DNA of 64,000 nt from Nemertoderma westbladi. Taxonomy: Eukaryota > Animalia > Xenacoelomorpha. Of this stretch, positions 1-51,053 are shown in pieces; the first letter of the stretch is position 1, and each line of letters begins with the position of its first letter. The notes beneath the pieces were generated by a model, which was not told the DNA's origin, did no database searches, and worked only from the letters and a program-made list of their open reading frames with translations. A program made the translations under genes and the position numbers. The stretch covers positions 156,714 to 220,713 of the forward strand of contig JAUCBJ010007620.1 in NCBI GenBank assembly GCA_032718475.1, in the 5' to 3' direction.

Positions 1-2700
1 CAACATGCGACTATTGTAAAGATGGAAAAAGTAAGTGAAATCCATTGTCAGACAACATGCAACTATTTTAAAGATGGAAAAAGTAAGTGAAATACATTGT
101 CAGACAACATGCGACTATTTTAAAGATGGGAAAAGTAAGTGAAATCCATTGTCAGACAACATGCGACTATTGTAAAGATGGAAAAAGTAAGTGAAAACCA
201 TTGTCAGACAACATGCGACTATTGTAAAGATTGAAAAAGTAAGTGAAATCCATTGTCAGACAACATGCGACTATTGTAAAGATGGAAAAAGTTAGTGAAA
301 TCCATTGTCAGACAACATGCGACTATTGTAAAGATGGAAAAAAGTAAGTGAAATCCATTGTCAGACAACACGCGACTATTGTAAAGATGGAAAAATTAAG
401 TGAAATCCATTGTCAGACAACATGCGACTATTGTAAAGATGGAAAAAGTAAGTGAAAACCATTGTCAGACAACATGCGACTATTGTAAAGATTGAAAAAG
501 TAAGTGAAATCCATTGTCAGACAACATGCGACTATTTTAAAGATGGAAAAAGTAAATGAAATCCATTGTCAGACAACATGCGACTATTGTAAAGATGGAA
601 AAAGTAAGTGAAAACCATTGTCAGACAACATGCGACTATTTTAAAGATGGAAAAAGTAAGTGAAAACCATTGTCAGACAACATGCGACTATTTTAAAGAT
701 GGAAAAAGTAAGTGAAATCCATTGTCAGACAACATGCGACTATTGTAAAGATGGAAAAAGTAAGTGAAAACCATTGTCAGACAACATGCGACAAGATTGA
801 AAAAGTAAGTGAAATCCATTGTCAGACAACATGCGACTATTTTAAAGATGGAAAAAGTAAGTGAAATCCATTGTCAGACAACATGCGACTATTTTAAAGA
901 GGGAAAAAGTAAGTGAAAACCATTGTCAGACAACATGCGACTATTGTAAAGATTGAAAAAGTAAGTGAAATCCATTGTCAGACAATATGCGACTATTGTA
1001 AAGATTGAAAAAGTAAGTGAAATCCATTGTCAGACAACATGCGACTATTGTAAAGATTGAAAAAGTAAGTGAAATCCATTGTCAGACAATATGCGACTAT
1101 TGTAAAGATTGAAAAAGTAAGTGAAATCCATTGTCAGACAACATGCGACTATTGTAAAGATGGAAAAACTAAGTGAAATCCATTGTCAGACAAGATGCGA
1201 CTATTGTAAAGATGGAAAAAGTAAGTGAAAACCATTGTCAGACAACATGCGACTATTTTAAAGATGGAAAAAGTAAGTGAAAACCATTGTCAGACAACAT
1301 GCGACTATTTTAAAGATGGAAAAAGTAAGTGAAATCCATTGTCAGACAACATGCGACTATTGTAAAGATGGAAAAAGTAAGTGAAAACCATTGTCAGACA
1401 ACATGCGACAAGATTGAAAAAATAAGTGAAATCCATTGTCAGACAACATGCGACTATTTTAAAGATGGAAAAAGTAAGTGAAATCCATTGTCAGACAACA
1501 TGCGACTATTTTAAAGAGGGAAAAAGTAAGTGAAAACCATTGTCAGACAACATGCGACTATTGTAAAGATTGAAAAAGTAAGTGAAATCCATTGTCAGAC
1601 AATATGCGACTATTGTAAAGATTGAAAAAGTAAGTGAAATCCATTGTCAGACAACATGCGACTATTGTAAAGATTGAAAAAGTAAGTGAAATCCATTGTC
1701 AGACAATATGCGACTATTGTAAAGATTGAAAAAGTAAGTGAAATCCATTGTCAGACAACATGCGACTATTGTAAAGATGGAAAAACTAAGTGAAATCCAT
1801 TGTCAGACAACATGCGACTATTTTAAAGATGGAAAAAGTAAATGAAATCCATTGTCAGACAACATGCGACTATTTTAAAGATGGAAAAAGTAAGTGAAAA
1901 CCATTGTCAGACAACATGCGACTATTGTAAAGATTGAAAAAGTAAGTGAAATCCATCGTCAGACAACATGCGACTATTTTAAAGATGGAAAAAGTAAGTG
2001 AAATCCATTGTCAGACAACATGCGACTATTTTAAAGATGGAAAAAGTAAGTGAAATCCATTGTCAGACAACATGCGACTATTGTAAAGATGGAAAAAGTA
2101 AGTGAAAATCATTGTCAGACAACATGCGACTATTTTAAAGATGGAAAAAGTAAGTGAAATCCATTGTTAGACAACATGCGACTATTGTAAAGATGGAAAA
2201 AGTAAGTGAAAACCATTGTCAGACAACATGCGACTATTGTAAAGATTGAAAAAGTAAGTGAAATCCATTGTCAGACAACATGCGACTATTGTAAAGATGG
2301 AAAAAGTTTTAGTGAAATCCATTGTCAGACAACATGCGACTATTGCAATAATGGAAAAAGTAAGTGAAACCCATTGTCAGCCAACATGCGACTATTTTAA
2401 AGATGGAAAAAGTAAGTGAAATCCATTGTCAGACAACATGCGACTATTGTAAAGATGGAAAAAGTAAGTGAAAATCATTGTCAGACAACATGCGACTATT
2501 GTAAAGATGGAAAAAGTAAGTTAAATCCATTGTCAGACAACATGCGACTATTGTAAAGATGGAAAAAGTAAGTGAAAACCATTGTCAGACAACATGCGAC
2601 TATTATAGAGATGGAAAAAGTAAGTGAAATCCATTGTCAGACAACATGCGACTATTGTAAAGATGGAAAAAGTAAGTGAAATCCATTGTCAGACAACATG
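1..2700 (+). repeat. 52-bp tandem satellite, left segment (continues beyond window start)
   Basis: Consensus CAACATGCGACTATTGTAAAGATGGAAAAAGTAAGTGAAATCCATTGTCAGA (52 nt) repeated head-to-tail with scattered substitutions; about 52 monomers. Contains a 617-bp (12-mer) duplication marked by a 7-nt deletion at ~793 and ~1410. Confidence 0.99.
2685..2700 (+). repeat. Left target-site duplication of LINE (ATTGTCAGACAACATG)
   Basis: Identical 16-mer immediately flanks the insertion at 2685-2700 and 6519-6534. An uninterrupted paralogous site with matching variant monomers on both sides is at 23351-23366. Confidence 0.9.
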
Positions 2701-2788
2701 AAAGACTCATGACATAACTGTAACTTTAACTTTGACAACCTAACTGTACTGCTGTATGTCAATTATTTAAATTTATTATTTCAATGAT

Positions 2789-3568
2789 ATGGCTGAGGCA
2801 GTGGAGTTCGTGAAACACCAAGATGAAATTCTCAATCTGATCCGCTCCGTTAAACAAAAGAAAAGCTTCACCAATGACGAGGAGAAACACGTAATTGATA
2901 AACTGATGGCGATGTCATCCTTGTTTACCACTACGCTCGGTCTGCTCGCCGAAGCGCGCCAAGAGTCGGTTAACTCCAAAAACCAACTCCTGAACAACCT
3001 TCTGACACACCCCTCGGCTGCGGTTGCAGCAAACGCGAAAGTCGGACTTCCTCCCGCGACCTCGGCATGGAACAGGTCCGAGTGTGGTGCTGGTGCCCCC
3101 ACCAGCCTCGCCGCTACAAACGTCAACAACGTCACCACCGGTACCGGTACACCAGCCAGGAATCCACAACCAGCACCGCTTAGGACGATTATCGGGGGGA
3201 GCCGACCCGCCGGCGGCCCTATCCGGGCTGGTACGAAGCCGCCCGCGCCCCCACGGAAGGCCCACGTTCATATCGGGAGGTTGCACCCCAATGTAACCTC
3301 AAAGGATATCTGCGACTTCCTCAATCTGGAGAAAGTTCAATTCGACGAAGTTGTGGCAGTTCCCCCACGCCAGGATTCGCCATACATCAGTTATCATATC
3401 GTTTGCGACCAGGAAAAACGCGACTCAGTCATAGACCCCACATTATGGGAAGACGGAGTTACAATCCGTAACTACCGTCTAAATGACGAGGAGCGGGTTC
3501 ACTACGGAGTGCGCCCACGGCAATACAACGGAACCCCCATCCCATCCTCCCAACAGGACAGGGAATGA
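2789..3568 (+). CDS. LINE ORF1 protein (259 aa): N-terminal helical region, P/A/T-rich linker, C-terminal RRM-like domain
   Basis: ATG-initiated ORF. The C-terminal VHIGRLHPNVTSKDICDFL...YISYHIV...DPTLWEDGVTIRNY resembles the RRM-type ORF1 domain of CR1/L2/RTEX-type LINEs. Confidence 0.85.
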   Translation: MAEAVEFVKHQDEILNLIRSVKQKKSFTNDEEKHVIDKLMAMSSLFTTTLGLLAEARQESVNSKNQLLNNLLTHPSAAVAANAKVGLPPATSAWNRSECGAGAPTSLAATNVNNVTTGTGTPARNPQPAPLRTIIGGSRPAGGPIRAGTKPPAPPRKAHVHIGRLHPNVTSKDICDFLNLEKVQFDEVVAVPPRQDSPYISYHIVCDQEKRDSVIDPTLWEDGVTIRNYRLNDEERVHYGVRPRQYNGTPIPSSQQDRE

Positions 3569-6383
3569 CACCCGTCGCACCCGGTAATCCCAAACGATGA
3601 CGTCATCATTAGACTCTGGAACGTAGAAGGTTTACAATACCTGGTAAATCATTATAGCGACGCTGAACTCTACTCAAACTCAGATGTAGTCCTATTTACA
3701 GAAACTTTCCTCACTACAACTACATTTCAAACGCCGAATTACTACCCCTTCCTCTCGCCAGCTGCCCAGGGCTCCAGTGGCCGACCCAGTGGCGGTCTGC
3801 TAATTCTGTGCAAACCAAATTTAAACCCATCCGGACTTGCTCAAGATACCAGTCACATAATAATTAAAACTGATATAGCTTATTTCGCAGTTTTCTACTT
3901 TCCACCAAAAACCGCGCTGGAAAACATTATTCTCTCCATCTCCACTGCACTATCCCATACAGACTGCAACCTACCCACTGTATTGGGTGGAGATTTTAAT
4001 TGTAGACTCGATAACGGCAACCGCGGGTCAACTCTCGTGGAACACCTCAACTCGCTCGGTTTCACCTGCCTCAACAATGCTGCCAACCCCACTTATATAT
4101 CACCTCAAGGTGAGAGTGTCATCGACCTGATGTTTGTCAGATATGTTGGCGCCCTCCCACCAAATATACCAGACTTAAACGTTATTCTGGGCCCAATAAG
4201 GAAACACCAAAGGACCCAGGTGACTCTTGGTTTCCAGACATTAAACCTACCGCCGACTAAACCGCCTCGATACACACGGAAAATAAACCCTGATATCATC
4301 CGACAGCACCCCAATCTCCAGTTAATCCGGGAAAATCTAACAACCACCAACGACATAGATAGCGCGACTGCACTGTTCAATGAGGCGTTAACTAACTCTG
4401 CAACACTAATATCATCTTGCAACCCCAGCGGCAAACCCTGGTACGACGTTGAGTGCCAGGAACTTAAAGGAGCACTCATTTCAGCAATGAAAAATCGCAA
4501 TAAGTCAGAGACTGACAACACATCATTCTGGAACCTTCGAAAAATATACAAACGGCTTATTATATCTAAACGCAATGAATACGAAGAAAAGGTTTTATCA
4601 GACTTGGTGGGAAGAGCCGAGATTAAACCCTGGTCTTTGTTTAACGATCGTAAACCTACAGTCGCCCCGATCGATTCCATACGCTTAGAATCACACTTCC
4701 ACGACTTGCTGGGTATCTCGCGCGACCCCCCTGGCACAGAACCAATCCCAGTGACAAGCGAAGCAGATCGAAGCATCTCAGAATGGTACAATGAGCCTCT
4801 CTCCGACTCAGTTGTATTCGAAACAATACAATCCTCAGCAAACAATAAAGCCTCCGGGCCCGACAACATCTACTACGAACATCTAAAACAAGCCTGCCCG
4901 TTCATTCTGGTAACTCTAACTTTGCTCTACAACGTATGTCTCAATGCTGGCAAGCTTCCTTTCATCTGGAAGAACAGCATTATAAACATCCTGTATAAAG
5001 GTAAAGGTGCAATATCGAACCCGGACAACTACCGTGGCATCGCCCTTCTCTGCGTTCTCCTTAAAATACTAACATCGACTTTAAACAAACGTATTCGTCA
5101 ACATGTTGGCCAACTGATCCCACCCGAACAATATGGATTCCTCCCCGGTCGCTCTACGAATCAAGCTATATCAAAACTCCTCTGCGATATAGCATCAGCG
5201 TTCCGCTCGAGTCGCCGCGAAGAACGGATCGTCTACGCGGCATTCGTCGACTTCCGAAAGGCGTTCGACTTTGTAAGCCGTGCCAAGCTACTCCATAAAA
5301 TATATGCCCTCGGTATCAAAGGAAAGACATACGATCTCGTAAAGGAACTACTAGATAATTACATCCGGGTTTATGATGGCCTACGTTTCTCGAATATAAT
5401 CCACCAACTCCGCGGTGTCCTTCAAGGGGACTGCCTCTCTCCGACTCTTTTCATCATCTTCATTGCGGATCTGGCGTCAGCCCTCCGTAACTCTGTGGCT
5501 CTCCTTAAATTTATATTCTATGCAGACGACCTAGTGTTCTACTCCTGCAACAAACGCGAAATCCAATCTGCACTTGACGTCCTCCAAACCTGGTGTGTCG
5601 CTAATGGGATGGAGGTGAACCTCACCAAAACAAAAATTGTAAAATTCCGCAAAGGCGGCCGCATTGCACGCAGCGACCACTTCACTTACAACAACCGCGA
5701 AGTTCAACTCGCCAGCCATTACGAATATCTCGGAGTCACCTTCCAGTCCTCACTATCCTTCTCTCTCCACCTCAAACAGAAAAAAGAAAAAGCTTATTGC
5801 ATCATCGGTTCCCTTAAACACATCCACCTCTTGTCTGTAGAAACTGGAATTAAAATTTTTCAACTCAAAAATATCTCCAATGATAACATACGCACTACAA
5901 ATAATCTCACCACATCTCTCCCTGCAAAATGTGAAAGATATCGACAAAGTAAAAACGACCCACGTAAAACGAATGCTTCGACTACACAGCTCTGCTTCCT
6001 CGACACTTGTATTAAAATTGGCAGGGGAAAAATCATTCATCGAAGCCCTCCTAGAGACCTCCCTGTATGCGTTTAACCCAGAAGTTATCCGAAACTACCG
6101 GTCGTACCGCTCCGAACGCGAGGAGAATTTTGTTAACGAGGGATACTCCCGCGGTCCAGCATTCCAAACCTCGGTTTGGAAGACTCATGGCCAGACTAAC
6201 AGGCATGTTGTCACCCGGACGACAGCCCACGGATTCCACTTTAAAGTCTGCAACAACTCCGTTCCCTTCCATGCCTTAACCCCGGAATGCCATTGCAAGT
6301 TCTGCAAACTCTCCTGCAGTGACCGCTACCACATACTTTCCTGCAACCTCTGCCCGCCTCTGTCGGTACTCGCCGCAAACTAA
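3569..6383 (+). pseudogene. LINE ORF2 (apurinic-like endonuclease + reverse transcriptase + C-terminal zinc knuckle) with one +1 frameshift near 5867-5871
   Basis: The frame is open from 3569: IRLWNVEGL, FTETF, GRPSGG, GGDFN, SVIDL (APE); KPWYDVEC, NYRGIALL, QYGF, FVDFRKAFD, GVLQGDCLSPTLF, FYADDL, YEYLGV (RT). After FQLK the homologous frame continues as ISPMITYA... to CKFC-x8-H-x3-C and the stop at 6381-6383. Confidence 0.9.
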
Positions 6384-6518
6384 CCACAACGCCCCCCCCC
6401 CACCCTTGGCATATTACTGTACTTTTATATACTGTACTGTATTGGTATATGTTTTTCTATTGGCTGATTGGTATACTGTATCTCATATTTACCCCGCCCG
6501 GGGTGTATCTATTAATAT

Positions 6519-6534
6519 ATTGTCAGACAACATG
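6519..6534 (+). repeat. Right target-site duplication of LINE
   Basis: ATTGTCAGACAACATG, identical to 2685-2700; the satellite resumes in register. Confidence 0.9.
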
Positions 6535-9500
6535 CGACTATTGCAATAATGGAAAAGGTAAGTGAAATCCATTGTCAGACAACATGCGACTAATGTAAAG
6601 ATGGAAAAAGTAAGTGAAATCCATTGTCAGACAACATGCGACTATTGTAAAGATGGAAAAAGTAAGTGAAAACCATTGTCAGACAACATGCGACTATTAT
6701 AGAGATGGAAAAAGTAAGTGAAATCCATTGTCAGACAACATGCGACTATTGTAAAGATTGAAAAAGTAAGTGAAAACCATTGTCAGACAACATGCGACTA
6801 TTATAGAGATGGAAAAAGTAAGTGAAATCCATTGTCAGACAACATGCGACTATTGTAAAGATTGAAAAAGTAAGTGAAATCCATTGTCAGACAACATGCG
6901 ACTATTGTAAAGATGGAAAAAGTAAGTGAAATCCATTTCAGACAACATGCGACTATTGTAAAGATGGAAAAATTAAGTGAAATCCATTGTCAGACAACAT
7001 GCGACAATTGCAATAATGGAAAAAGTAAGTGAAATCCATTGTCAGGCAACATGCGACTATTGTAAAGATGGAAAAAGTAAGTGAAATCCATTGTCAGACA
7101 ACATGCGACTATTGCAATAATGGAAAAGGTAAGTGAAATCCATTGTCAGAAAACATGCGACTATTGCAATAATGGAAAAGGTAAGTGAAATCCATTGTCA
7201 GAGAACATGCGACTATTGTAAAGATGGAAAAAGTTAGTGAAATCCATTGTCAGACAACATGCGACTATTGTAAAGATGTAAAAAGTAAGTGAAATCCATT
7301 GTCAGACAACATGCGACTATTTTAAAGATGGAAAAAGTAAGTGAAATCCATTGTCAGACAACATGCGACTATTGTAAACATGGAAAAAGTAAGTGAAATC
7401 CATTGTCAGACAACATGCGACTATTGTAAACATGGAAAAAGTTAGTGAAATCCATTGTCAGACAACATGCGACTATTTTAAAGATGGAAAAAGTAAGTGA
7501 AATCCATTGTCAGACAACATGCGACTATTGTAAACATGGAAAAAGTAAGTGAAATCCATTGTCAGACAACATGCGACTATTGTAAAGATGTAAAAAGTAA
7601 GTGAAATCCATTGTCAGACAACATGCGACTATTTTAAAGATGGAAAAAGTAAGTGAAATCCATTGTCAGACAACATGCGACTATTGTAAACATAGAAAAA
7701 GTAAGTGAAATAAATCCATTGTCAGACAACATGCGACTATTGTAAAGATGTAAAAAGTAAGTGAAATCCATTGTCAGACAACATGCGACTATTGTAAAGA
7801 TGTAAAAAGTAAGTGAAATCCATTGTCAGACAACATGCGTCTATTGCAATAATGGAAAAGGTAAGTGAAATCCATTGTCAGAAAACATGCGACTATTGCA
7901 ATAATGGAAAAGGTAAGTGAAATCCATTGTCAGAGAACATGCGACTATTGTAAAGATGGAAAAAGTTAGTGAAATCCATTGTCAGACAACATGCGACTAT
8001 TGTAAAGATGTAAAAAGTAAGTGAAATCCATTGTCAGACAACATGCGACTATTTTAAAGATGGAAAAAGTAAGTGAAATCCATTGTCAGACAACATGCGA
8101 CTATTGTAAACATGGAAAAAGTAAGTGAAATCCATTGTCAGAGAACATGCGACTATTGTAAACATGGAAAAAGTAAGTGAAATCCATTGTCAGACAACAT
8201 GCGACTATTGTAAACATGGAAAAAGTTAGTGAAATCCATTGTCAGACAACATGCGACTATTTTAAAGATGGAAAAAGTAAGTGAAATCCATTGTCAGACA
8301 ACATGCGACTATTGTAAACATGGAAAAAGTAAGTGAAATCCATTGTAAACATGGAAAAAGTAAGTGAAATCCATTGTCAGACAACATGCGACTATTGTAA
8401 ACATGGAAAAAGTTAGTGAAATCCATTGTCAGACAACATGCGACTATTGTAAAGATGTAAAAAGTAAGTGAAATCCATTGTCAGACAACATGCGACTATT
8501 TTAAAGATGGAAAAAGTAAGTGAAATCCATTTCAGACAACATGCGACTATTGTAAAGATGGAAAAATTAAGTGAAATCCATTGTCAGACAACATGCGACT
8601 ATTGCAATAATGGAAAAGGTAAGTGAAATCCATTGTCAGACAACATGCGACTATTGCAATAATGGAAAAGGTAAGTGAAATCCATTGTCAGACAACATGC
8701 GACTATTGTAAAGATGGAAAAAGTAAGTGAAATCCATTTCAGACAACATGCGACTATTGTAAAGATGGAAAAACTAAGTGAAATCCATTGTCAGACAACA
8801 TGCGACTATTGTAAAGATGGAAAAAGTAAGTGAAATCCATTTCAGACAACATGCGACTATTGTAAAGATGGAAAAATTAAGTGAAATCCATTGTCAGACA
8901 ACATGCGACTATTGCAATAATGGAAAAAGTAAGTGAAATCCATTGTCAGACAACATGCGACTATTGTAAAGATGGAAAAAGTAAGTGAAATCCATTTCAG
9001 ACAACATGCGACTATTGTAAAGATGGAAAAATTAAGTGAAATCCATTGTCAGACAACATGCGACTATTGCAATAATGGAAAAAGTAAGTGAAATCCATTG
9101 TCAGACAACATGCGACTATTGTAAATATGGAAAAAGTAAGTGAAATCCATTGTCAGACAACATGCGACTATTGCAATAATGGAAAAGGTAAGTGAAATCC
9201 ATTGTCAGACAACATGCGACTATTGCAATAATGGAAAAGGTAAGTGAAATCCATTGTCAGACAACATGCGACTATTGCAATAATGGAAAAGGTAAGTGAA
9301 ATCCATTGTCAGACAACATGGGACTATTGTAAAGATGGAAAAATTAAGTGAAATCCATTGTCAGACAACATGGGACTATTGTAAAGATGGAAAAATTAAG
9401 TGAAATCCATTGTCAGACAACATGCGACTATTGCAATAATGGAACAAGTAAGTGAAATCCATTGTCAGACAACATGCGACTATTGTAAAGATGGAAAAAT

Positions 9501-10719
9501 TAAGTGAAATCCATTGTCAGACAACATGCGACTATTGCAATAATGGAAAAGGTAAGTGAAATCCATTGTCAGACAACATGCGACTATTGCAATAATGGAA
9601 AAGGTTAGTGAAATCCATTGTCAGACAACATGCGACTATTGTAAAGATGGAAAAAGTAAGTGAAATCCATTGTCAGACAACATGCGACTATTTTAAAGAT
9701 GGAAAAAGTAAGTGAAATCCATTGTCAGACAACATGCGACTATTTTAAAGATGGAAAAGTAAGTGAAATCCATTGTCAGACAACATGCGACTATTTTAAA
9801 GATGGAAAAAGTAAGTGAAATCCATTGTCAGACAACATGCGACTATTTTAAAGATGTAAAAAGTAAGTGAAATCCATTGTCAGACATCATGCGTCTATTG
9901 TAAAGATTGAAAAAGTAAGTGAAATCCATTGTCAGACAACATGCGACTATTGTAGAGATGGAAAAAGTAAGTGAAATCCATTGTCAGACAACATGCGACT
10001 ATTTTAAAGATGGAAAAAGTAAGTGAAATCCATTGTCAGACAACATGCGACTATTTTAAAGATGTAAAAAGTAAGTGAAATCCATTGTCAGACATCATGC
10101 GTCTATTGTAAAGATTGAAAAAGTAAGTGAAATCCATTGTCAGACAACATGCGACTATTGTAGAGATGGAAAAAGTAAGTGAAATCCATTGTCAGACAAC
10201 ATGCGTCTATTGTAAAGATTGAAAAAGTAAGTGAAATCCATTGTCAGACAACATGCGACTATTGTAGAGTTGGAAAAAGTAAGTGAAATCCATTGTCAGA
10301 CAACATGCGACTATTTTAAAGATGGAAAAAGTAAGTGAAATCCATTGTCAGACAACATGCGACTATTGTAAAGATGTTAAAAGTAAGTGAAAACCATTGT
10401 CAGACAACATGCGACTATTGTAAAGATTGAAAAAGTAAGTGAAATCCATTGTCAGACAACATGCGACTATTGTAAAGATGGAAAAAGTAAGTGAAATCCA
10501 TTGTCAGACAACATTCGACTATTGTAAAGATGTTAAAAGTAAGTGAAAACCATTGTCAGACAACATGCGACTATTGTAAAGATTGAAAAAGTAAGTGAAA
10601 TCCATTGTCAGACAACATGCGACTATTTTAAAGATGGAAAAAGTAAGTGAAATCCATTGTCAGACAACATTCGACTATTGTAAAGATGTTAAAAGTAAGT
10701 GAAATCCATTGTCAGACAA

Positions 10720-13700
10720 CATGCGACTATTGTAAAGATGGAAAAAGTAAGTGAAATCCATTGTCAGACAACATGCGACAATTGTAAAGATGGAAAGAGT
10801 AAGTGAAAACCATTGTCAGACAACATGCGACAATTGTAAAGATTGAAAAAGTAAGTGAAATCCATTGTCAGACAACATGCGACTATTTTAAAGATGGAAA
10901 AAGTAAGTGAAATCCATTGTCAGACAACATGCGACTATTTTAAAGATGGAAAAGTAAGTGAAATCCATTGTCAGACAACATGCGACTATTTTAAAGATGG
11001 AAAAAGTAAGTGAAATCCATTGTCAGACAACATGCGACTATTTTAAAGATGTAAAAAGTAAGTGAAATCCATTGTCAGACATCATGCGTCTATTGTAAAG
11101 ATTGAAAAAGTAAGTGAAATCCATTGTCAGACAACATGCGACTATTGTAGAGATGGAAAAAGTAAGTGAAATCCATTGTCAGACAACATGCGACTATTTT
11201 AAAGATGGAAAAAGTAAGTGAAATCCATTGTCAGACAACATGCGACTATTTTAAAGATGTAAAAAGTAAGTGAAATCCATTGTCAGACATCATGCGTCTA
11301 TTGTAAAGATTGAAAAAGTAAGTGAAATCCATTGTCAGACAACATGCGACTATTGTAGAGATGGAAAAAGTAAGTGAAATCCATTGTCAGACATCATGCG
11401 TCTATTGTAAAGATGGAAAAAGTAAGTGAAATCCATTGTCAGACAACATGCGACTATTGTAGAGTTGGAAAAAGTAAGTGAAATCCATTGTCAGACAACA
11501 TGCGACTATTTTAAAGATGTAAAAAGTAAGTGAAATCCATTGTCAGACATCATGCGTCTATTGTAAAGATTGAAAAAGTAAGTGAAATCCATTGTCAGAC
11601 AACATGCGACTATTGTAGAGTTGGAAAAAGTAAGTGAAATCCATTGTCAGACATCATGCGACTATTTTAAAGATGGAAAAAGTAAGTGAAATCCATTGTC
11701 AGACAACATGCGACTATTGTAAAGATGTTAAAAGTAAGTGAAAACCATTGTCAGACAACATGCGACTATTGTAAAGATTGAAAAAGTAAGTGAAATCCAT
11801 TGTCAGACAACATGCGACTATTTTAAAGATGGAAAAAGTAAGTGAAATCCATTGTCAGACAACATTCGACTATTGTAAAGATGTTAAAAGTAAGTGAAAA
11901 CCATTGTCAGACAACATGCGACTATTGTAAAGATGTAAAAAGTAAGTGAAATCCATTGTCAGACAACATGCGACTATTGTAAAGATTGAAAAAGTAAGTG
12001 AAATCCATTGTCATACAACATGCGACTATTGCAATAATGGAAAAGATAAGTGAAATCCATTGTCAGACAACTTGCGACTATTGTAAAGATGGAAAAAGTA
12101 AGTGAAATCCATTGTCAGACAACACGCGACTATTGTAAAGATGGAAAAAGTAAGTGAAATCCATTGTCAGACAACATGCGACAATTGTAAAGATGGAAAA
12201 AGTAAGTGAAAACCATTGTCAGACAACATGCGACAATTGTAAATATTGAAAAAGTAAGTGAAATCCATTGTCAGACAACATGCGACTATTTTAAAGATGG
12301 AAAAAGTAAGTGAAATCCATTGTCAGACAACATGCGACTATTGTAAAGATGGAAAAAAAGTAAGTGAAATCCATTGTCAGACAACACGCGACTATTGTAA
12401 AGATGGAAAAAGTAAGTGAAATCCATTGTCAGACAACATGCGACAATTGTAAAGATGGAAAAAGTAAGTGAAAACCATTGTCAGACAACATGCGACAATT
12501 GTAAAGATTGAAAAAGTAAGTGAAATCCATTGTCAGACAACATGCGACTATTTTAAAGATGGAAAAAGTAAGTGAAATCCATTGTCAGACAACATGCGAC
12601 TATTGTAAAGATGGAAAAAGTAAGTGAAATCCATTGTCAGACAACATGCGACTATTGTAAAGATGGAAAAAGTAAGTGAAATCCATTGTCAGACAACATG
12701 CGACCATTGTAAAGATGGTAAAAGTAAGTGAAATCCATTGTCAGACAACATGCGACTATTGTAAAGATGGAAAACGTAAGTGAAATCCATTGTCAGACAA
12801 CATGCGACTATTTTAAAGATGGAAAAAGTAAGTGAAATCCATTGTCAGACAACATGCGACTATAGTAAAGATGGAAAAAGTCAGTGAAATCCATTGTCAG
12901 ACAACATGCGACTATAGTAAAGATGGAAAAAGGAAAAAGTAAGTGAAATCCATTGTCAGAGAACATGCGACTATTGTAAAGATTGAAAAAGTAAGTGAAA
13001 TCCATTGTTAGACAACATGCGACTATTGTAAAGATGGAAAAAGTAAGTGAAATCCATTGTCAGACAACATGCGACTAGTGTAAAGATTGAAAAAGTAAGT
13101 GAAAACCATTATCAGACAACATGCGACTATAGTAAAGATGGAAAAAGGAAAAAGTAAGTGAAATCCATTGTCAGAGAACATGCGACTATTGTAAAGATGG
13201 AAAAAGTAAGTGAAATCCATTGTCAAACAACATGCGACTAGAAAAAGTAAGTGAAATCCATTGTCAGACAACATGCGACTATTGTAAAGATGGAAAAAGT
13301 TAGTGAAATCCATTGTCAGACAACATGTGACTATTGTAAAGATGGAAAAGGTAAGTGAAATCCATTGTCAGACAACATGCGACTAGTGTAAATATTGAAA
13401 AAGTAAGTGAAAACCATTGTCAGACAACATGCGACTATTGTAAAGATGGAAAAAGTAAGTGAAATCCATTGTCAGACAACATGCGACAATTGTAAAGATG
13501 GAAAGAGTAAGTGAAAACCATTGTCAGACAACATGCGACAATTGTAAAGATTGAAAAAGTAAGTGAAATCCATTGTCAGACAACATGCGACTATTTTAAA
13601 GATGGAAAAAGTAAGTGAAATCCATTGTCAGACAACATGCGACTATTTTAAAGATGGAAAAGTAAGTGAAATCCATTGTCAGACAACATGCGACTATTTT

Positions 13701-38870: not shown

Positions 38871-41800
38871 AAGTAAGTGAAATCCATTGTCAGACAACAT
38901 GCGACTATTGTAAAGATGGAAAAAGTAAGTGAAATCCATTGTCAGACAACATGCGACTGTTGTAAAGATGGAAAAAGTAAGTGAAAACCATTGTCAGACA
39001 ACATGCGACTATTATAGAGATGGAAAAAGTAAGTGAAATCCATTGTCAGACAACATGCGACTATTGTAAAGATTGAAAAAGTAAGTGAAAACCATTGTCA
39101 GACAACATGCGACTATTATAGAGATGGAAAAAGTAAGTGAAATCCATTGTCAGACAACATGCGACTATTGTAAAGATTGAAAAAGTAAGTGAAATCCATT
39201 GTCAGACAACATGCGACTATTGTAAAGATGGAAAAAGTAATTGAAATCCATTTCAGACAACATGCGACTATTGTAAAGATGGAAAAATTAAGTGAAATCC
39301 ATTGTCAGACAACATGCGACTATTGCAATAATGGAAAAGGTAAGTGAAATCCATTGTCAGACAACATGCGACTATTGCAATAATGGAAAAAGTAAGTGAA
39401 ATCCATTGTCAGACAACATGCGACTATTGTAAAGATGGAAAAAGTAATTGAAATCCATTTCAGACAACATGCGACTATTGTAAAGATGGAAAAATTAAGT
39501 GAAATCCATTGTCAGACAACATGCGACTATTGCAATAATGGAAAAGGTAAGTGAAATCCATTGTCAGACAACATGCGACTATTGCAATAATGGAAAAGGT
39601 AAGTGAAATCCATTGTCAGACAACATGCGACTATTGTAAAGATGGAAAAAGTAAGTGAAATCCATTTCAGACAACATGCGACTATTGTAAAGATGGAAAA
39701 TTAAGTGAAATCCATTGTCAGACAACATGCGACTATTGCAATAATGGAAAAGGTAAGTGAAATCCATTGTCAGACAACATGCGACTATTGCAATAATGGA
39801 AAAGGTAAGTGAAATCCATTGTCAGACAACATGCGACTATTATAGAGATGGAAAAAGTAAGTGAAATCCATTGTCAGACAACATGCGACTATTGTAAAGA
39901 TTGAAAAAGTAAGTGAAATCCATTGTCAGACAACATGCGACTATTGTAAAGATGGAAAAAGTAATTGAAATCCATTTCAGACACATGCGACTATTGTAAA
40001 GATGGAAAAATTAAGTGAAATCCATTGTCAGACAACATGCGACTATTGCAATAATGGAAAAAGTAAGTGAAATCCATTGTCAGACAACATGCGACTATTG
40101 TAAATATGGAAAAAGTAAGTGAAATCCATTGTCAGACAACATGCGACTATTGTAAAGATGGAAAAAGTAAGTGAAATCCATTTCAGACAACATGCGACTA
40201 TTGTAAAGATGGAAAAACTAAGTGAAATCCATTGTCAGACAACATGCGACTATTGTAAAGATGGAAAAAGTAAGTGAAATCATTTCAGACAACATGCGAC
40301 TATTGTAAAGATGGAAAAATTAAGTGAAATCCATTGTCAGACAACATGCAACTATTGCAATAATGGAAAAAGTAAGTGAAATCCATTGTCAGACAACATG
40401 CGACTATTGTAAAGATGGAAAAAGTAAGTGAAATCCATTTCAGACAACATGCGACTATTGTAAAGATGGAAAAAGTAAGTGAAATCCATTGTCAGACAAC
40501 ATGCGACTATTGTAAATATGGAAAAAGTAAGTGAAATCCATTGTCAGACAACATGCGACTATTGCAATAATGGAAAAGGTAAGTGAAATCCATTGTCAGA
40601 CAACATGCGACTATTGCAATAATGGAAAAGGTAAGTGAAATCCATTGTCAGACAACATGCGACTATTGTTAAGATGGAAAAAGTAAGTGAAATCCATTTC
40701 AGACAACATGCGACTATTGTAAAGATGAAAAAATTAAGTGAAATCCATTGTCAGACAACATGCGACTATTGCAATAATGGAAAAGGCAAATGAAATCCAT
40801 TGTCAGACAACATGCGACTATTGCAATAATGGAAAAGGTAAGTGAAATCCATTGTCAGACAACATGCGACTATTATAGAGATGGAAAAAATAAGTGAAAT
40901 CCATTGTCAGACAACATGCGACTATTGTAAAGATTGAAAAAGTAAGTGAAAACCATTGTCAGACAACATGCGACTAATATAGAGATGGAAAAAGTAAGTG
41001 AAATCCATTGTCAGACAACATGCGACTATTGTAAAGATTGAAAAAGTAAGTGAAATCCATTGTCAGACAACATGCGACTATTGTAAAGATGGAAAAAGTA
41101 ATTGAAATCCATTTCAGACAACATGCGACTATTGTAAAGATGGAAAAATTAAGTGAAATCCATTGTCAGACAACATGCGACTATTGCAATAATGGAAAAA
41201 GTAAGTGAAATCCATTGTCAGACAACATGCGACTATTGCAATAATGGAAAAGGTAAGTGAAATCCATTGTCAGACAACATGCGACTATTGTTAAGATGGA
41301 AAAAGTAAGTGAAATCCATTTCAGACAACATGCGACTATTGTAAAGATGGAAAAAGTAAGTGAAAACCATTGTCAGACAACATGCGACTATTTTAAAGAT
41401 GTAAAAAGTAAGTGAAATCCATTGTCAGACAACATACGACTATTGCAATAATGGAAAAGGTAAGTGAAATCCATTGTCAGACAACATGCGACTATTGCAA
41501 TAATGGAAAAGGTAAGTGAAATCCATTGTCAGACAACATGCGACTATTGTAAAGATGGAAAAAGTAAGTGAAATCCATTTCAGACAACATGCGACTATTG
41601 TAAAGATGGAAAAATTAAGTGAAATCCATTGTCAGACAACATGCGACTATTGCAATAATGGAAAAGGTAAGTGAAATCCATTGTCAGACAACATGCGACT
41701 ATTGCAATAATGGAAAAGGTAAGTGAAATCCATTGTCAGACAACATGCGACTATTTTAAAGATGGAACAAGTAAGTGAAATCCATTGTCAGACAACATGC

Positions 41801-44800
41801 GACTATTGTAAAGATGGAAAAAGTAAGTGAAATCCATTTCAGACAATATGCGACTATTGTAAAGATGGAAAAATTAAGTGAAATCCATTGTCAGACAACA
41901 TGCGACTATTGCAATAATGGAAAAAGTAAGTGAAATCCATTGTCAGACAACATGCGACTATTGTAAAGATGGAAAAAGTAAGTGAAATCCATTTCAGACA
42001 ACATGCGACTATTTTAAAGATGGAACAAGTAAGTGAAATCCATTGTCAGACAACATGCGACTATTGTAAAGATGGAAAAAGTAAGTGAAATCCATTTCAG
42101 ACAACATGCGACTATTGTAAAGATGGAAAAATTAAGTGAAATCCATTGTCAGACAACATGCGACTATTGCAATAATGGAAAAAGTAAGTGAAATCCATTG
42201 TCAGACAACATGCGACTATTGTAAAGATGGAAAAAGTAAGTGAAATCCATTTCAGACAACATGCGACTATTGTAAAGATGGAAAAATTAAGTGAAATCCA
42301 TGGTCAGACAACATGCGACTATTGCAATAATGGAAAAATTAAGTGAAATCCATTGTCAGACAACATGCGACTATTGTAAATATGGAAAAAGTAAGTGAAA
42401 TCCATTGTCAGACAACATGCGACTATTGCAATAATGGAAAAGGTAAGTGAAATCCATTGTCAGACAACATGCGACTATTGCAATAATGGAAAAGGTAAGT
42501 GAAATCCATTGTCAGACAACATGCGACTATTGTAAAGATGGAAAAATTAAGTGAAATCCATTGTCAGACAACATGCGACTATTGCAATAATGGAAAAGGT
42601 AAGTGAAATCCATTGTCAGACAACATGCGACTATTGTAAAGATGGAAAAAGTAAGTGAAATCCATTTCAGACAACATGCGACTATTGTAAAGATGGAAAA
42701 ATTAAGTGAAATCCATTGTCAGACAACATGCGACTATTGCAATAATGGAAAAGGTAAGTGAAATCCATTGTCAGACAACATGCGACTATTGCAATAATGG
42801 AAAAGGTAAGTGAAATCCATTGTCAGACAACATGCGACTATTGTAAAGATGGAAAAAGTAAGTGAAATCCATTTCAGACAACATGCGACTATTGTAAAGA
42901 TGGAAAAAGTAAGTGAAATCCATTGTCAGACAACATGCGACTATTGTAAAGATGGAAAAAGTAAGTGAAATCCATTGTCAGACAACATGCGACTATTGCA
43001 ATAATGGAAAAGGTAAGTGAAATCCATTGTCAGACAACATGCGACTATTGTAAAGATGGAAAAAGTAAGTGAAATCCATTGTCAGACAACATGCGACTAT
43101 TGTAAAGATGGAAAAACTAAGTGAAATCCATTGTCAGACAACATGCGACTATTGTAAAGATGGAAAAAGTAAGTGAAATCATTTCAGACAACATGCGACT
43201 ATTGTAAAGATGGAAAAATTAAGTGAAATCCATTGTCAGACAACATGCGACTATTGCAATAATGGAAAAAGTAAGTGAAATCCATTGTCAGACAACATGC
43301 GACTATTGTAAAGATGGAAAAAGTAAGTGAAATCCATTTCAGACAACATGCGACTATTGTAAAGATGGAAAAAGTAAGTGAAATCCATTGTCAGACAACA
43401 TGCGACTATTGTAAATATGGAAAAAGTAAGTGAAATCCATTGTCAGACAACATGCGACTATTGCAATAATGGAAAAGGTAAGTGAAATCCATTGTCAGAC
43501 AACATGCGACTATTGCAATAATGGAAAAGGTAAGTGAAATCCATTGTCAGACAACATGCGACTATTGTTAAGATGGAAAAAGTAAGTGAAAAACATTTCA
43601 GACAACATGCGACTATTGTTAAGATGGAAAAAGTAAGTGAAATCCATTTCAGACAACATGCGACTATTGTAAAGATGAAAAAATTAAGTGAAATCCATTG
43701 TCAGACAACATGCGACTATTGCAATAATGGAAAAGGCAAATGAAATCCATTGTCAGACAACATGCGACTATTGCAATAATGGAAAAGGTAAGTGAAATCC
43801 ATTTTCAGACAACATGCGACTATTATAGAGATGGAAAAAATAAGTGAAATCCATTGTCAGACAACATGCGACTATTGTAAAGATTGAAAAAGTAAGTGAA
43901 AACCATTGTCAGACAACATGCGACTATTATAGAGATGGAAAAAGTAAGTGAAATCCATTGTCAGACAACATGCGACTATTGTAAAGATTGAAAAAGTAAG
44001 TGAAATCCATTGTCAGACAACATGCGACTATTGTAAAGATGGAAAAAGTAATTGAAATCCATTTCAGACAACATGCGACTATTGTAAAGATGGAAAAATT
44101 AAGTGAAATCCATTGTCAGACAACATGCGACTATTGCAATAATGGAAAAAGTAAGTGAAATCCATTGTCAGACAACATGCGACTATTGCAATAATGGAAA
44201 AGGTAAGTGAAATCCATTGTCAGACAACATGCGACTATTGTTAAGATGGAAAAAGTAAGTGAAATCCATTTCAGACAACATGCGACTATTGTAAAGATGG
44301 AAAAAGTAAGTGAAAACCATTGTCAGACAACATGCGACTATTTTAAAGATGTAAAAAGTAAGTGAAATCCATTGTCAGACAACATACGACTATTGCAATA
44401 ATGGAAAAGGTAAGTGAAATCCATTGTCAGACAACATGCGACTATTGCAATAATGGAAAAGGTAAGTGAAATCCATTGTCAGACAACATGCGACTATTGT
44501 AAAGATGGAAAAAGTAAGTGAAATCCATTTCAGACAACATGCGACTATTGTAAAGATGGAAAAATTAAGTGAAATCCATTGTCAGACAACATGCGACTAT
44601 TGCAATAATGGAAAAGGTAAGTGAAATCCATTGTCAGACAACATGCGACTATTGCAATAATGGAAAAGGTAAGTGAAATCCATTGTCAGACAACATGCGA
44701 CTATTTTAAAGATGGAACAAGTAAGTGAAATCCATTGTCAGACAACATGCGACTATTGTAAAGATGGAAAAAGTAAGTGAAATCCATTTCAGACAACATG

Positions 44801-47800
44801 CGACTATTGTAAAGATGGAAAAATTAAGTGAAATCCATTGTCAGACAACATGCGACTATTGCAATAATGGAAAAAGTAAGTGAAATCCATTGTCAGACAA
44901 CATGCGACTATTGTAAAGATGGAAAAAGTAAGTGAAATCCATTTCAGACAACATGCGACTATTTTAAAGATGGAACAAGTAAGTGAAATCCATTGTCAGA
45001 CAACATGCGACTATTGTAAAGATGGAAAAAGTAAGTGAAATCCATTTCAGACAACATGCGACTATTGTAAAGATGGAAAAATTAAGTGAAATCCATTGTC
45101 AGACAACATGCGACTATTGCAATAATGGAAAAAGTAAGTGAAATCCATTGTCAGACAACATGCGACTATTGTAAAGATGGAAAAAGTAAGTGAAATCCAT
45201 TTCAGACAACATGCGACTATTGTAAAGATGGAAAAATTAAGTGAAATCCATTGTCAGACAACATGCGACTATTGCAATAATGGAAAAATTAAGTGAAATC
45301 CATTGTCAGACAACATGCGACTATTGTAAATATGGAAAAAGTAAGTGAAATCCATTGTCAGACAACATGCGACTATTGCAATAATGGAAAAGGTAAGTGA
45401 AATCCATTGTCAGACAACATGCGACTATTGCAATAATGGAAAAGGTAAGTGAAATCCATTGTCAGACAACATGCGACTATTGTAAAGATGGAAAAAGTAA
45501 GTGAAATCCATTTCAGACAACATGCGACTATTGTAAAGATGGAAAAATTAAGTGAAATCCATTGTCAGACAACATGCGACTATTGCAATAATGGAAAAGG
45601 TAAGTGAAATCCATTGTCAGACAACATGCGACTATTGCAATAATGGAAAAGGTAAGTGAAATCCATTGTCAGACAACATGCGACTATTGTAAAGATGGAA
45701 AAAGTAAGTGAAATCCATTTCAGACAACATGCGACTATTGTAAAGATGGAAAAAGTAAGTGAAATCCATTGTCAGACAACATGCGACTATTGTAAAGATG
45801 GAAAAAGTAAGTGAAATCCATTGTCAGACAACATGCGACTATTGTAAAGATGGAAAAAGTAAGTGAAATCCATTGTCAGACAACATGCGACTATTGCAAT
45901 AATGGAAAAGGTAAGTGAAATCCATTGTCAGACAACATGCGACTATTGTAAAGATGGAAAAAGTAAGTGAAATCCATTGTCAGACAACATGCGACTATTG
46001 CAATAATGGAAAAGGTAAGTGAAATCCATTGTCAGACAACATGCGACTATTGTAAAGATGGAAAAAGTAAGTGAAATCCATTTCAGACAACATGCGACTA
46101 TTGTAAAGATGGAAAAAGTAAGTGAAATCCATTGTCAGACAACATGCGACTATTGCAATAATGGAAAAGGTAAGTGAAATCCATTGTCAGACAACATGCG
46201 ACTATTGTAAAGATGGAAAAAGTAAGTGAAATCCATTGTCAGACAACATGCGACTATTGCAATAATGGAAAAAGTAAGTGAAACCCATTGTCAGCCAACA
46301 TGCGACTATTTTAAAGATGGAAAAAGTAAGTGAAATCCATTGTCAGACAACATGCGTCTATTGTAAAGATGGAAAAAGTAAGTGAAATCCATTGTCAGAC
46401 AACATGCGACTATTTTAAAGATGGAAAAAGTAAGTGAAATCCATTGTCAGACAACATGCGACTATTGTAAAGATGGAAAAAGTAAGTGAAATCCATTGTC
46501 AGACAACATGCGACTATTGTAAAGATGGAAAAAGTAAGTGAAATCCATTGTCAGACAACATGCGACTATTGCAATAATGGAAAAAGTAAGTGAAACCCAT
46601 TGTCAGCCAACATGCGACTATTTTAAAGACGGAAAAAGTAAGTGAAATCCATTGTCAGACAACATGCGTCTATTGTAAAGATGGAAAAAGTAAGTGAAAT
46701 CCATTGTCAGACAACATGCGACTATTTTAAAGATGGAAAAAGTAAGTGAAATCCATTGTCAGACATCATGCGTCTATTGTAAAGATTGAAAAAGTAAGTG
46801 AAATCCATTGTCAGACAACATGCGACTATTGTAAAGATGGAAAAATTAAGTGAAATCCATTGTCAGACAACATGCGACTATTGTAAAGATGGAAAAATTA
46901 AGTGAAATCCATTGTCAGACAACATGCGACTATTGCAATAATGGAAAAAGTAAGTGAAACCCATTGTCAGCCAACATGCGACTATTTTAAAGATGGAAAA
47001 AGTAAGTGAAATCCATTGTCAGACAACATGCGACTATTTTAAAGATGGAAAAAGTAAGTGAAATCCATTGTCAGACAACATGCGACTATTTTAAAGATGT
47101 AAAAAGTAAGTGAAATCCATTGTCAGACATCATGCGTCTATAGTAAAGATTGAAAAAGTAAGTGAAATCCATTGTCAGACAACATGCGACTATTGTAGAG
47201 ATGGAAAAAGTAAGTGAAATCCATTGTCAGACAACATGCGACTATTTTAAAGATGGAAAAAGTAAGTGAAATCCATTGTCAGACAACATGCGACTATTTT
47301 AAAGATGTAAAAAGTAAGTGAAATCCATTGTCAGACATCATGCGTCTATTGTAAAGATTGAAAAAGTAAGTGAAATCCATTGTCAGACAACATGCGACTA
47401 TTGTAGAGATGGAAAAAGTAAGTGAAATCCATTGTCAGACAACATGCGTCTATTGTAAACATTGAAAAAGTAAGTGAAATCCATTGTCAGACAACATGCG
47501 ACTATTGTAGAGATGGAAAAAGTAAGTGAAATCCATTGTCAGACAACATGCGACTATTGCAATAATGGAAAAGGTAAGTGAAATCCATTGTCAGACAACA
47601 TGCGACTATTGCAATAATGGAAAAGGTAAGTGAAATCCATGGTCAGACAACATGCGACTATTGTAAAGATGGAAAACCTAAGTGAAATCCATTGTCAGAC
47701 AACATGCGACTATTGTAAAGATGGAAAAAGGAAAAAGTAAGTAAAATCCATTGTCAGACAACATGTGACTATTGTAAAGATGGAAAAAGTAAGTTAAAAC

Positions 47801-47861
47801 ATGAACAGTAGGAAACTAGTATATACCCGGAATTGCAGCAGAATGCTCTTAATAGTGTTAA

Positions 47862-48046
47862 CCCTTGCGTACCAACACTTAAAGGCGGCAGTATGCAGCC
47901 TTTGTGGGTAGGATAATTAGTAATATTGTTATCCTTTTTATATAAAAATATTTGGTACGATAAGTAAATAAACCTTGGTCTAAACACATTTTTTTTGGTC
48001 AGTGTGGGAGGAAAAATTTATGTAATTTATCTTTGGTGTACAAGGG
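47862..48046. mobile_element. piggyBac-type non-autonomous element (MITE), 185 bp
   Basis: TTAA at 47858-47861 and 48047-48050. Termini CCCTTGCGTACCAA / TTGGTGTACAAGGG form an imperfect TIR starting CCC. Confidence 0.8.
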
Positions 48047-48873
48047 TTAATATTTGAAACTAGTTTAATAACATAAGAAATTATTATTTGATGTTAAATT
48101 CGTTAATATTTTTACACAGCGCATGGCCCACTGTTCTTATGTTATAAACTCGATTCTATATTACAAATATTTGCACCATCTACAATATGCTAAATTTTAA
48201 AACAAAATATTCTAGAAAAAATTAGCTAAGTATTAAAAAAATATGTGCTAGAATGTAGTTTAACAAACGCGAAATCGCGCAAAGGTGCGCGTCTACATCG
48301 CAAGAGCAACTGTCTCCTTGAATGGCTTGCTACCAATCTTACAACCAAAAAACATTCACCAGAATTGGGGATTTTTAGTATTATAAAACATAGTTTTTAA
48401 ATCCCACGTTAATAATTTTATGTAATATTGTATGTTGTATTTGTTATAAATGATATAATTAGATCCTATTTTAAAGTCGGCGTGAAATACGCTGTGAAAT
48501 AAACTCAATTATGGGCTATAGGGTGCTTGCTATATATCACGGCTTGAAATAAAGTAACACTATTCTTTCAGTATGATTGCACCGTATTCTACGGTCACTC
48601 TAAGGTAGGTACAGTAGATCCTCATCACAGATGCAATCAGCACAAGATACATATGTCTTTACCGGTAGGCCTACACACCGCATACGGAACCGATGTCACT
48701 CATTCTGTCACTGCCTACATTTAGCAGGCCTACTTATGCATAAGTTGTTCCCTGCACCGGTATAATAATATATGAATATACCTAGCATACCGTAGGCCTA
48801 CAGCCACATGAAAGTGGCTATTTTACACTTTTACTTATTGGATTTACTGGTTAATTTTTTGGTTCGGGTTGGT

Positions 48874-49016
48874 TGGTGATTCTCAAACCCTAATTAAAAC
48901 TGTCACGTATCCCGAACCCTAAGTCATGAGGCTCTAATCTAAGAGATTTTGTGGAATTTCGGACCTCTCTTAGGGTTAGGGTACATGACAATTTGAATTA
49001 GGGTTTCGGACCACCA
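48874..49016. mobile_element. Fold-back/MITE-like element with ~55-bp imperfect inverted arms containing CCCTAA/TTAGGG motifs
   Basis: Left arm TGGTGATTCTCAAACCCTAATTAAAACTGTCACGTATCCCGAACCCTAAG matches the reverse complement of right arm CTTAGGGTTAGGGTACATGACAATTTGAATTAGGGTTTCGGACCACCA. Confidence 0.7.
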
Positions 49017-49198
49017 CTATCGAAATTTGGGGCGAAAATGACCGCGGGGAGAGGGCATTCCTCGCGATGGGCATTTTTTGCCTGTGACACCAGTAGCTAT
49101 ATGAGGATGAGCCTAACTATTGAACAAGTAAAGCACTCAAAATAATATCTTAATAATAATATACCGCCTATGTACTGTAGCTTAACATTAGGCTAGCC

Positions 49199-49261
49199 CA
49201 TGGAATACTAAATATACATTCTATTTATATATACATTCTACTCTATATTTAGTATTCCATG
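49199..49261. mobile_element. Tiny hairpin MITE with CATGG termini
   Basis: Perfect inverted repeat CATGGAATACTAAATATA / TATATTTAGTATTCCATG, flanked by near-direct repeats GCTAGCC / GCTAACC (possible 7-bp TSD). Confidence 0.65.
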
Positions 49262-49442
49262 GCTAACCTTATATTTACAGTTTGTGAAATTCTGCAACAT
49301 CTAAACCTAAACCAAGTATTGTATTGTAGATATTTAACCATACTCTTAAAAAAATTAAAAATAAAAGTTAATTTAAAAATCTAAATATGTAAAATCTAAA
49401 TATGCTTTGATTTTTACTGAGTATTATTTATTTTGTAAATAG

Positions 49443-49574
49443 CTTGCGTTCAACGAAAAGATTCGATTGATATGTGTATCGATTTAGCGGAAAGAGGAGA
49501 ATGTGAGAAGAACCCAATTTACATGTACACTCACTGCCAAACCTCTTGTGATCATTGTACGGATGGCCATAAAG
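49443..49574 (+). CDS. Internal coding exon encoding one ShKT (ShK toxin-like) domain
   Basis: Pyrimidine-rich acceptor TTTTATTTTGTAAATAG, 132-nt symmetric phase-1 exon, donor AAG|GTGGGT. Translation CVQRKDSIDMCIDLAERGECEKNPIYMYTHCQTSCDHCTDGHK has the six-Cys ShKT pattern with the A..GEC..NP.YM...C..SC..C signature. Confidence 0.88.
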
Positions 49575-51053
49575 GTGGGTCAACAATCGTAAGGTATCAT
49601 CCCAGTTAGGCACTACTACAGTATGTGTACCCATGATCGGGATTTTTTTTGTAGTAGCTAGTTTTTCTACATTTTTTTTAATGTTCTATGTCATATTAGC
49701 TATATAGTTTTGTAAAAAAAAATGTTCTGGATCAAATATTTTTTGTTCTAGAACATTTTTTATAAAAATTTTAATTCCTAGCCTATAGCCCTATACCTAG
49801 GCCTACAGTATAAAACACTAGCTACAATAAAAAAAACATATCTACTAATATTCTAGAATATTTTAATAATATGTTTATTTATAATAAATCACGTTTTGAA
49901 AAATTACTAGAGAGCTAGTCAATCAGCTAATGTTCTAGAACACAATATTTTTTTTGAAAAATGTTGCAATGAAGTCAGTGGTGATATTACTATGCAAAAA
50001 GTACATCATTTCAGTAATTAATATCAAAATATCAACTGCGACTGCATACGGAACTCTAGCCAATATTTTGTTCTAGAAGACATTTTTTATTTTTTATACT
50101 AGCTATTATTTACTAACCTCTTTTTATAAAAGTTATAGAACCCGTGTTACTGGTAGTAATCAATTTTGATAAATTTGTTCTAGAATATGTTCTTTTTCTA
50201 GAACTTTTTTGGAAAAAATACCATCCTACTGTCAGAGGTCAAAAGTTTGTTCTAGAAAAAATACCTCATAAAGAGGTTACATAAAGTAACATTTTTTGCC
50301 CTCACTTAATTGGTTATTTATTTACAATATAATTGTTAACGACTAAATTATTGAGATTTTTGGACTTTCTGGCTAAAACTTGTGCTCATTTCTGGTGTAT
50401 AATATGGCACAAATGTAAACAAATGCACATACTGTACATAAATGTAAACAGTTGGTAGGCCTAAAAGATCAGCAAATAAGATTCAAAATCGTGGTACAGT
50501 ATGTCAAGTATATCGAATATTTTCTTTAATAAATTATTATACAATATTTTGTCTGCGTTTTTATTAAATTTTGGTGTTTTTTTGTGTTGAATTTTGCTGT
50601 TGAATTCCATAAATTTAGTTACTGGACTCACAAGTCTAACTGTGTCATAAATTTCTAGAATATAATTACTGTTTCCATGGGAGCACTACAAAACGAAAAC
50701 TGAAATTTTTACGAATAAATCTACCCTTCTAGAATTATATCATTATGTTAAATACGTAATACCCCATTTTGAAGAATAATACATGTATTAAATTTGTTTA
50801 TCCTGAGAACGCCACTTGATTTCTTACCAGTTTGAAAAAACCTTTTCTCATTAAATCGCGGTTCAAAATATGATTGTTTAACAACTATTTATTTCGATCA
50901 ATAAAAATAACATTCATGCTGTAACTACAATATATGAATAGTGACATCTAAATATCAATTCAGACAACAGTCTTGATTGAAGGTTTACTATGGATGGAAT
51001 TGAAGATGACTTGAATTTACACTGCTCAACAAGAAGACATATACCACAAAATA

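Follow-up and report, generated by a model that had tools for sequence, protein, structure and literature searches.

A 52-bp satellite array in Nemertoderma westbladi apparently derived from the 3' end of a ShK-domain exon and its splice donor

Where did the long satellite array at the start of a 64,000-nt stretch of the Nemertoderma westbladi genome (contig JAUCBJ010007620.1, positions 156,714 to 220,713 of the forward strand) come from, and how is the gene in which it lies spliced? This stretch, hereinafter the window, starts within a tandem array of 52-bp units that ends at position 47798 and is followed by exons of a gene encoding ShK domains. An earlier note had proposed that the satellite is an amplified ShKT exon end together with its splice donor, multiplied in place from a paralogous exon of this same gene. 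The analysis reported here agrees: a spliced joint in one sequencing run and the unique sequence upstream of the unit in another identify the unit with the 3' end of a ShK exon that lies upstream in this gene or in its allele, a sister gene gives the direction from exon to satellite, and amplification in place is the most likely course.

Six sequencing runs are listed, none recorded as RNA, and the contigs of X1 to X5 were aligned to the window. X4 and X5, which come from two studies, both show the GT..AG joint 49574->51591 and zero depth over several unique intron bins. The features downstream of the bulk of the array are as follows.

47738..47788, + strand: the 51 nt of exon origin in the last unit; the spliced run X4 has a contig of 51 nt that fits over its whole length, with 2 letters different
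47789..49442, + strand: last donor copy and the unique rest of the intron up to the AG acceptor; DNA contig of X3 at 47769-48034 with 0 differences
49443..49574, + strand: ShK-domain exon, 132 nt, phase 1-1, spliced in X4 and X5
49575..51590, + strand: next intron, GT..AG; joint 49572->51589 (cut +2) in X4 and X5, unlisted for the DNA runs X1 and X3
51591..52000, + strand: last exon, with a short stretch of five codons, the stop at 51605-51607 and then the 3' untranslated region (UTR); contig cover at least to 52000

A 146-nt contig of X4, at depth 559, links 30 nt from the end of a unit directly to position 49443, the first base of the ShK exon; the two letters by which the 51-nt contig departs from 47738-47788 are as many as separate the array consensus from this last unit, and a 61-nt contig can be understood as 30 + G + 30, spanning two adjoining units. 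Contig 27 of X5, with 1,183 nt and a depth of 41.4, spans 49443-49572 together with the last exon and extends a further 299 nt upstream. Of these, 248 nt form a loose end before 47738, so that 51 nt remain for the last unit, and the calculation 51 x 41.4 / 144 comes to the bin depth of 14.7. The loose end, translated by hand, is in frame and contains Gly-x-Cys ten residues before the first Cys of the unit, the same spacing as in the downstream exon. Hand reading of the loose end and the unit, which together make up part of the source exon, gives four cysteines spaced as in ShK domains; this part has neither the Asn nor the Tyr-Met kept by more than 90% of the aligned family domains (Asn 0.91, Met 0.96). 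The joint in X4 and the in-frame ShK spacing upstream of the unit in X5 together identify the unit as the 3' end of a ShK exon lying upstream.

Each unit consists of 51 exon bases and one G, the first base of the donor; the spliced contigs join its exonic part to the next exon of the host gene. On the gene's strand, head-to-tail copies of the donor, with 701 donor-like sites in the array, precede the unique intron, and the last unit passes directly into that intron, at whose far end lies the ShK exon at 49443-49574. The earlier note had read the monomer from CAT, as an exon end plus donor; the exon end and the donor stand, with the correction that the exonic part begins 11 nt earlier.

The likeness between the unit and the downstream exon points the same way. 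Over 12 codons, 9 of the 12 residues and 24 of the 36 nucleotides are identical, with seven synonymous third-position differences, exactly as had been stated; the identities at codon positions 1, 2 and 3 are 10, 11 and 3 of 12. The BLOSUM62 score of this pair is 65, compared to a mean of 21 and a maximum of 49 for dinucleotide shuffles, none of which reaches 65 in 20,000 attempts (the shuffle comparison that had been proposed as a check), and the runner-up among the 32,324 six-frame 12-mers of the non-array part of the window scores 23. The exon itself matches the Pfam ShK family (PF01549) at 22.1 bits, above the cut-off of 20.9, in the profile search that had been proposed as a check; a profile test of the monomer is less clear, as described below. 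The unit encodes three cysteines conserved in the ShK family, and its divergence from the next exon is synonymous.

Several observations weigh against this identification or complicate it. X4 and X5 carry the label 'DNA?' and are taken as RNA on account of their GT..AG joints. The 30-nt match in X4 was assigned to the second-last unit, yet it fits any unit, and the unit-to-exon joint in X5 is not listed and was derived by the arithmetic given above. The unit alone scores only marginally against a generic ShK profile built from search hits, being matched by 57 of 2,000 shuffles, so that the strong signal lies in its likeness to the gene's own exon. The junction between the 5' part of the exon and the first unit would lie left of the window, and two motifs from the 5' part of the source exon have no match in the window with up to 2 mismatches. 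The RNA contigs differ from the window exon at 5 of 116 bases in X4 and 5 of 130 in X5, and in the UTR too, such that the main RNA contigs may come from an allele without the array. Finally, the contig across the unit-to-unit junction in X4 has a depth of 724, greater than the 559 of the spliced joint, an excess for which splicing cleanly at the first donor would not account unless it stems from background DNA or pre-mRNA. As to the left edge, no contig spanning it is among those returned by the run alignment, which is no evidence either way given that the filter loses records (the X5 contig, and any contig of X1 or X2 over the unique intron, were missing from its output too); an exact 30-nt unit pattern has 0 matches in metagenome contigs.

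The direction of descent is indicated by a sister gene. Over 37 nt of the unit (47747-47783), a 1,415-nt contig of X4 and DNA contigs from both X1 and X2 agree with it except for 5 differences. The DNA and RNA of the sister gene share the letters upstream, so that its exon is uninterrupted where the unit starts; the DNA then runs into its own GTAAGT donor, and the RNA into another exon that, on hand reading, starts like a ShK exon. This continuity sets the direction from exon to satellite: the unit sequence is ordinary exon in a gene family, and the satellite was derived from it. The sister gene is laid out alike, with one ShK domain per phase-1 exon, and shares with the source exon of the array an extra Ser-Cys before the conserved His-Cys.

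Given that the left edge is out of sight and that so close a sister gene exists, the unit could have been born at another copy of the gene and the array moved or recombined to its present place, in which case its left edge would not be an exon. We regard this as very unlikely: the last unit runs straight into the unique intron of the very exon to which the RNA joins the unit, and the sister gene differs from the unit at 5 of 37 nt, compared to 2 of 51 for the unit in RNA. Still more improbable, to the point that we reject both, are the suggestions that the 51 nt are a separate mini-exon, with the AG at the unit junction as its acceptor, or that the gene captured and exonised an older satellite. 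An AG does stand directly before TAAGT at each junction, and 51 nt in phase 1-1 would keep the frame, but the junction AG is preceded by only 3 pyrimidines in 15 positions, compared to 9 and 12 in 15 for the real acceptors, and the DNA of the sister gene is uninterrupted there; the three conserved family cysteines in the unit and its synonymous divergence from the next exon also count against these suggestions. Descent of the satellite from a coding exon end at this locus is the reading followed below.

The array itself comprises the following parts.

1..2700, + strand: 52-bp array, left part, running off the window edge
2701..6518, + strand: long interspersed nuclear element (LINE) inserted into a unit, with open reading frame 1 (ORF1) and ORF2, the latter with endonuclease and reverse transcriptase and one frameshift near 5870
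6519..47798, + strand: 52-bp array, right part; the two parts together contain about 847 units and 701 donor-like sites
29001..37398, + strand: block of the 27-unit (1,398-bp) higher-order repeat, with zero mismatch at that lag

Segmentation gives 847 units, in line with the 850 copies or more previously estimated, of 138 types (134-138 distinct types); by length, the array spans 43,981 bp or 845.8 units, a lower bound since it continues past the left edge of the window. As assembled, this is a long homogeneous tandem array of at least 43,981 bp, in the tens of kb usual for a satellite, and it also has higher-order repeats, which are common in satellites but not obligatory: the period is 27 units or 1,398 bp, dominant at 25.7-40 kb, next to several different local periods elsewhere, which bears out the earlier description of a satellite matured to higher-order repeats. 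The note's span of 1 to 49580 makes no mention of the LINE that interrupts the array. The 654 52-mers in register differ from the consensus by 4.2% and from each other by 7.0%, close to a star, without a gradient along the array. Words across the unit junction average 207 copies in the window, and variant words reach up to 144. The private changes of the last two units (47690-47788), a 7-bp duplication and single substitutions, are what one would expect at array edges out of reach of homogenisation. One X2 contig, with a loose end before 47730, links units in opposite orientations, which may reflect an inversion in an array of that sample or an artefact of the contig.

Distinct changes in the 39 coding nucleotides of the unit comprise 10 synonymous, 42 missense and 5 stop changes, compared to 19, 89 and 9 possible ones, which implies neutral drift in the units, with no coding constraint. 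The donor-like sites include 571 AAA|GTAAGT and 110 AAG|GTAAGT, and an in-frame stop follows 696 of the 701, typically two codons past the donor. A coding tandem repeat or an array of micro-exons is ruled out because 52 is not a multiple of 3, stops follow at those 696 junctions, and the spectrum of changes is neutral.

The comparison at lag 1,398 yields 7,000 bases without a mismatch, which is either very recent growth or an effect of assembly. The latter would imply that the feature is real and that its length, or the higher-order block, is inflated; this would bear on size only, and we consider it quite unlikely given the 134-138 unit types with several local periods, the short-read DNA contigs with many unit variants at very high summed depth (a depth that is not used as copy number), and the LINE that sits inside the array with its target-site duplication. 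This element, 3,818 bp long and apparently full-length, lies on the strand of the gene and is flanked by a 16-bp duplication of unit sequence (2685-2700 and 6519-6534). ORF1 is open, without a Pfam match, and there is a single frameshift late in ORF2; by these signs, including the duplication, the LINE is young.

How could such an array have begun? The motif TAAGT is found both at the start of the 51 nt of the unit and in the donor GTAAGT, 52 nt apart, and the exon side and the intron start are alike at 9 of 11 bases. In our judgment it is probable that the array arose in place by microhomology-guided tandem duplication, expanded into the start of the intron, and is neutral and spliced out from the first donor. 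The first duplicate would have come from slippage or unequal crossing-over between the two TAAGT motifs, with a donor rebuilt at every junction, and unequal exchange would then have led to hundreds of copies and the 27-unit repeat. Because a stop follows two codons after nearly every donor, the first donor alone would keep the reading frame, the rest of the array being removed as intron; use of a later donor would result in a truncated protein or decay of the message. The Tyr-Met pair of the family is missing exactly at the TAAGT site, and the neighbouring codons have diverged too; the TAAGT of the exon may itself have been written by a later exchange with the array.

Whether the array-bearing allele is the one that yields the correct message is a separate matter. 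In X3, which is filed under the same sample as X5, the aligned contig lacks all three RNA variants listed at 49474-49482. In X1, the variant has a depth of 34.8 and the shared exon one of 71.4, values that suit a second allele better than a duplicate gene, although this is weak evidence as contig depth is not copy number. The three aligned contigs of X4 include no variant units, and X5 shows one unit and no loop from unit to unit, though the DNA of its sample holds the satellite. The high depth of the X4 junction could be due to background DNA or pre-mRNA, to the use of later donors, or to a short perfect array in that individual; with background DNA or pre-mRNA as the source, variant contigs would be expected, although contig simplification may remove them. 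Splicing likely still takes place at the first copy, judging from the contigs.

An origin from the same exon is also compatible with the array and the sense-strand LINE having crippled this allele, so that alleles carrying few copies or none would supply the correct message and the allele with the array would give rise to truncated or decayed RNA. The exon and UTR variants, absent from the window, in the main RNA contigs of both studies would fit, as would the minor path in X4 (depth 31.5 of 192 at 49559), whose bases are those of the window-like DNA contig of X3, the depth of 724 at a junction without variant units, and the effect on splicing of the length of the variable number tandem repeat (VNTR) in ABCA7 (PMC5954066). 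However, the exon, donor and acceptor in the window are intact, the depths in X1 fit two alleles that share the intron (again with depth not being copy number), and X5 has no loop in spite of the satellite in its sample; we judge a crippled allele unlikely. Intact splicing from the first donor remains the account that we prefer. A bolder extension, tentative and less likely than not to be correct, is that 51 coding bases gave rise to a whole satellite, complete with higher-order repeats and a LINE, while the alleles of the gene segregated, and that array length may then act as a dial that differs from allele to allele, sending splicing to later donors and so removing the last ShK domain. Growth within the age of the alleles is suggested because the consensus still fits the expressed exon end, the units being 4.2% off compared to 3.8% between exon alleles.

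With regard to the gene as a whole, translation stops no more than five residues beyond the second ShK exon. A word-index protein search with the ShK exon returned no candidate, which is weak evidence; a search of representative proteins gave 1,096 matches at E <= 0.001, the best 150 of which are generic multi-ShK proteins with 35-55% identity, and the protein of this gene is not among these best 150. Within 49474-49571, four of the five variants listed among the runs change the amino acid on hand reading, from which the gene may be evolving fast. Elsewhere in the window, open frames resembling fragments of LINE reverse transcriptases were identified by eye at 52075-53094 (+), 55937-56335 (-), 57690-58766 (-) and 59568-59942 (-). 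A 144-nt repeat that is highly repetitive in the runs occurs at 51054-51197 and 57828-57971 (84%), and an inverted repeat at 63455-63631, with 57-nt arms that are 89% complementary and 63 nt apart, is possibly a small non-autonomous transposon. An Rfam scan of 47000-64000 gave 0 matches.

The arrangement belongs to a described class (PMC1557585, PMC3087553, PMC5954066; these and the other sources are cited here from their accessible parts). Donor-spanning minisatellites occur in human F7, IFI6, CBS, lamin B2 and PDGF, with 5 to ~26 units: 5-9 units of 37 bp in intervening sequence 7 (IVS7) of F7, 25 pseudo-sites in IFI6/6-16, and 15-20 in CBS IVS13 (PMC1557585). As in the window, the donor is repeated into the intron, their first unit spanning the exon-intron boundary, and in them the most upstream donor is mainly used, in F7 exclusively (PMC1557585). 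The F7 unit, however, consists of 4 exon and 33 intron nt (PMC1557585), whereas here 51 of the 52 nt are exonic; there are at least 846 units over 44 kb, with a higher-order repeat and a LINE, and donor choice is deduced from contigs. The locus can be viewed as a natural stress test of first-donor selection, in which about 700 decoy donors follow the real one and 110 of them match the consensus better with AAG|GTAAGT, far beyond the F7 constructs with their 12 units at most (PMC1557585).

Closer in copy number is the VNTR in intron 18 of ABCA7, with 25-bp units, ~427 of them (10,678 bp) in the largest allele, where a second donor is used (PMC5954066). There too, the donor recurs with the unit (at its start), use of the second donor shifts the frame, and the units run into the hundreds; the present array has at least twice the units and at least four times the length of that largest allele, and the ABCA7 unit starts at GT and contains no exon, whereas here the unit is coding sequence (PMC5954066). 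Among invertebrates, the amphioxus 'mirages' of the Adh3 and globin genes are tandem copies of exon-intron boundaries in which normal splicing persists and edge units escape homogenisation, comparable to the last two units here (PMC3087553). The mirages in BflGb6 have 3-6 units, with higher-order structure unmentioned in the accessible part of that source, in contrast to the 27-unit repeat in the window (PMC3087553). The CapA satellite, traced to an intron of NOS1AP according to a second-hand account, likewise stems from single-copy genic DNA; it is intron-derived and the major satellite of a clade, whereas the source here is a coding exon and the satellite is known at this locus (PMC8210747).

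Satellites can seldom be traced to a single-copy source. In this case the source can be named, together with the likely breakpoints and the centre sequence, and comparisons among populations and sister species could date the steps that led from one duplication to 44 kb of array with higher-order repeats. In the Drosophila genes kl-3 and kl-5 the satellites consist of simple repeats and are not known to be built from an exon and donor of the host gene. These Y-linked genes have giant introns, on the megabase scale, that contain satellite DNA, and the likeness to the present case is that of an intron enlarged by a satellite (PMC6508621). No published donor-spanning array of tens of kb with higher-order repeats was found in a search that judged most papers by title and the start of the abstract and that lay mostly outside the subscription literature. 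What is new here is the size, the 27-unit higher-order repeat, the LINE insertion and the almost wholly coding unit; compared to the known systems, the gain is one of scale and datability, the mechanism itself not being new.

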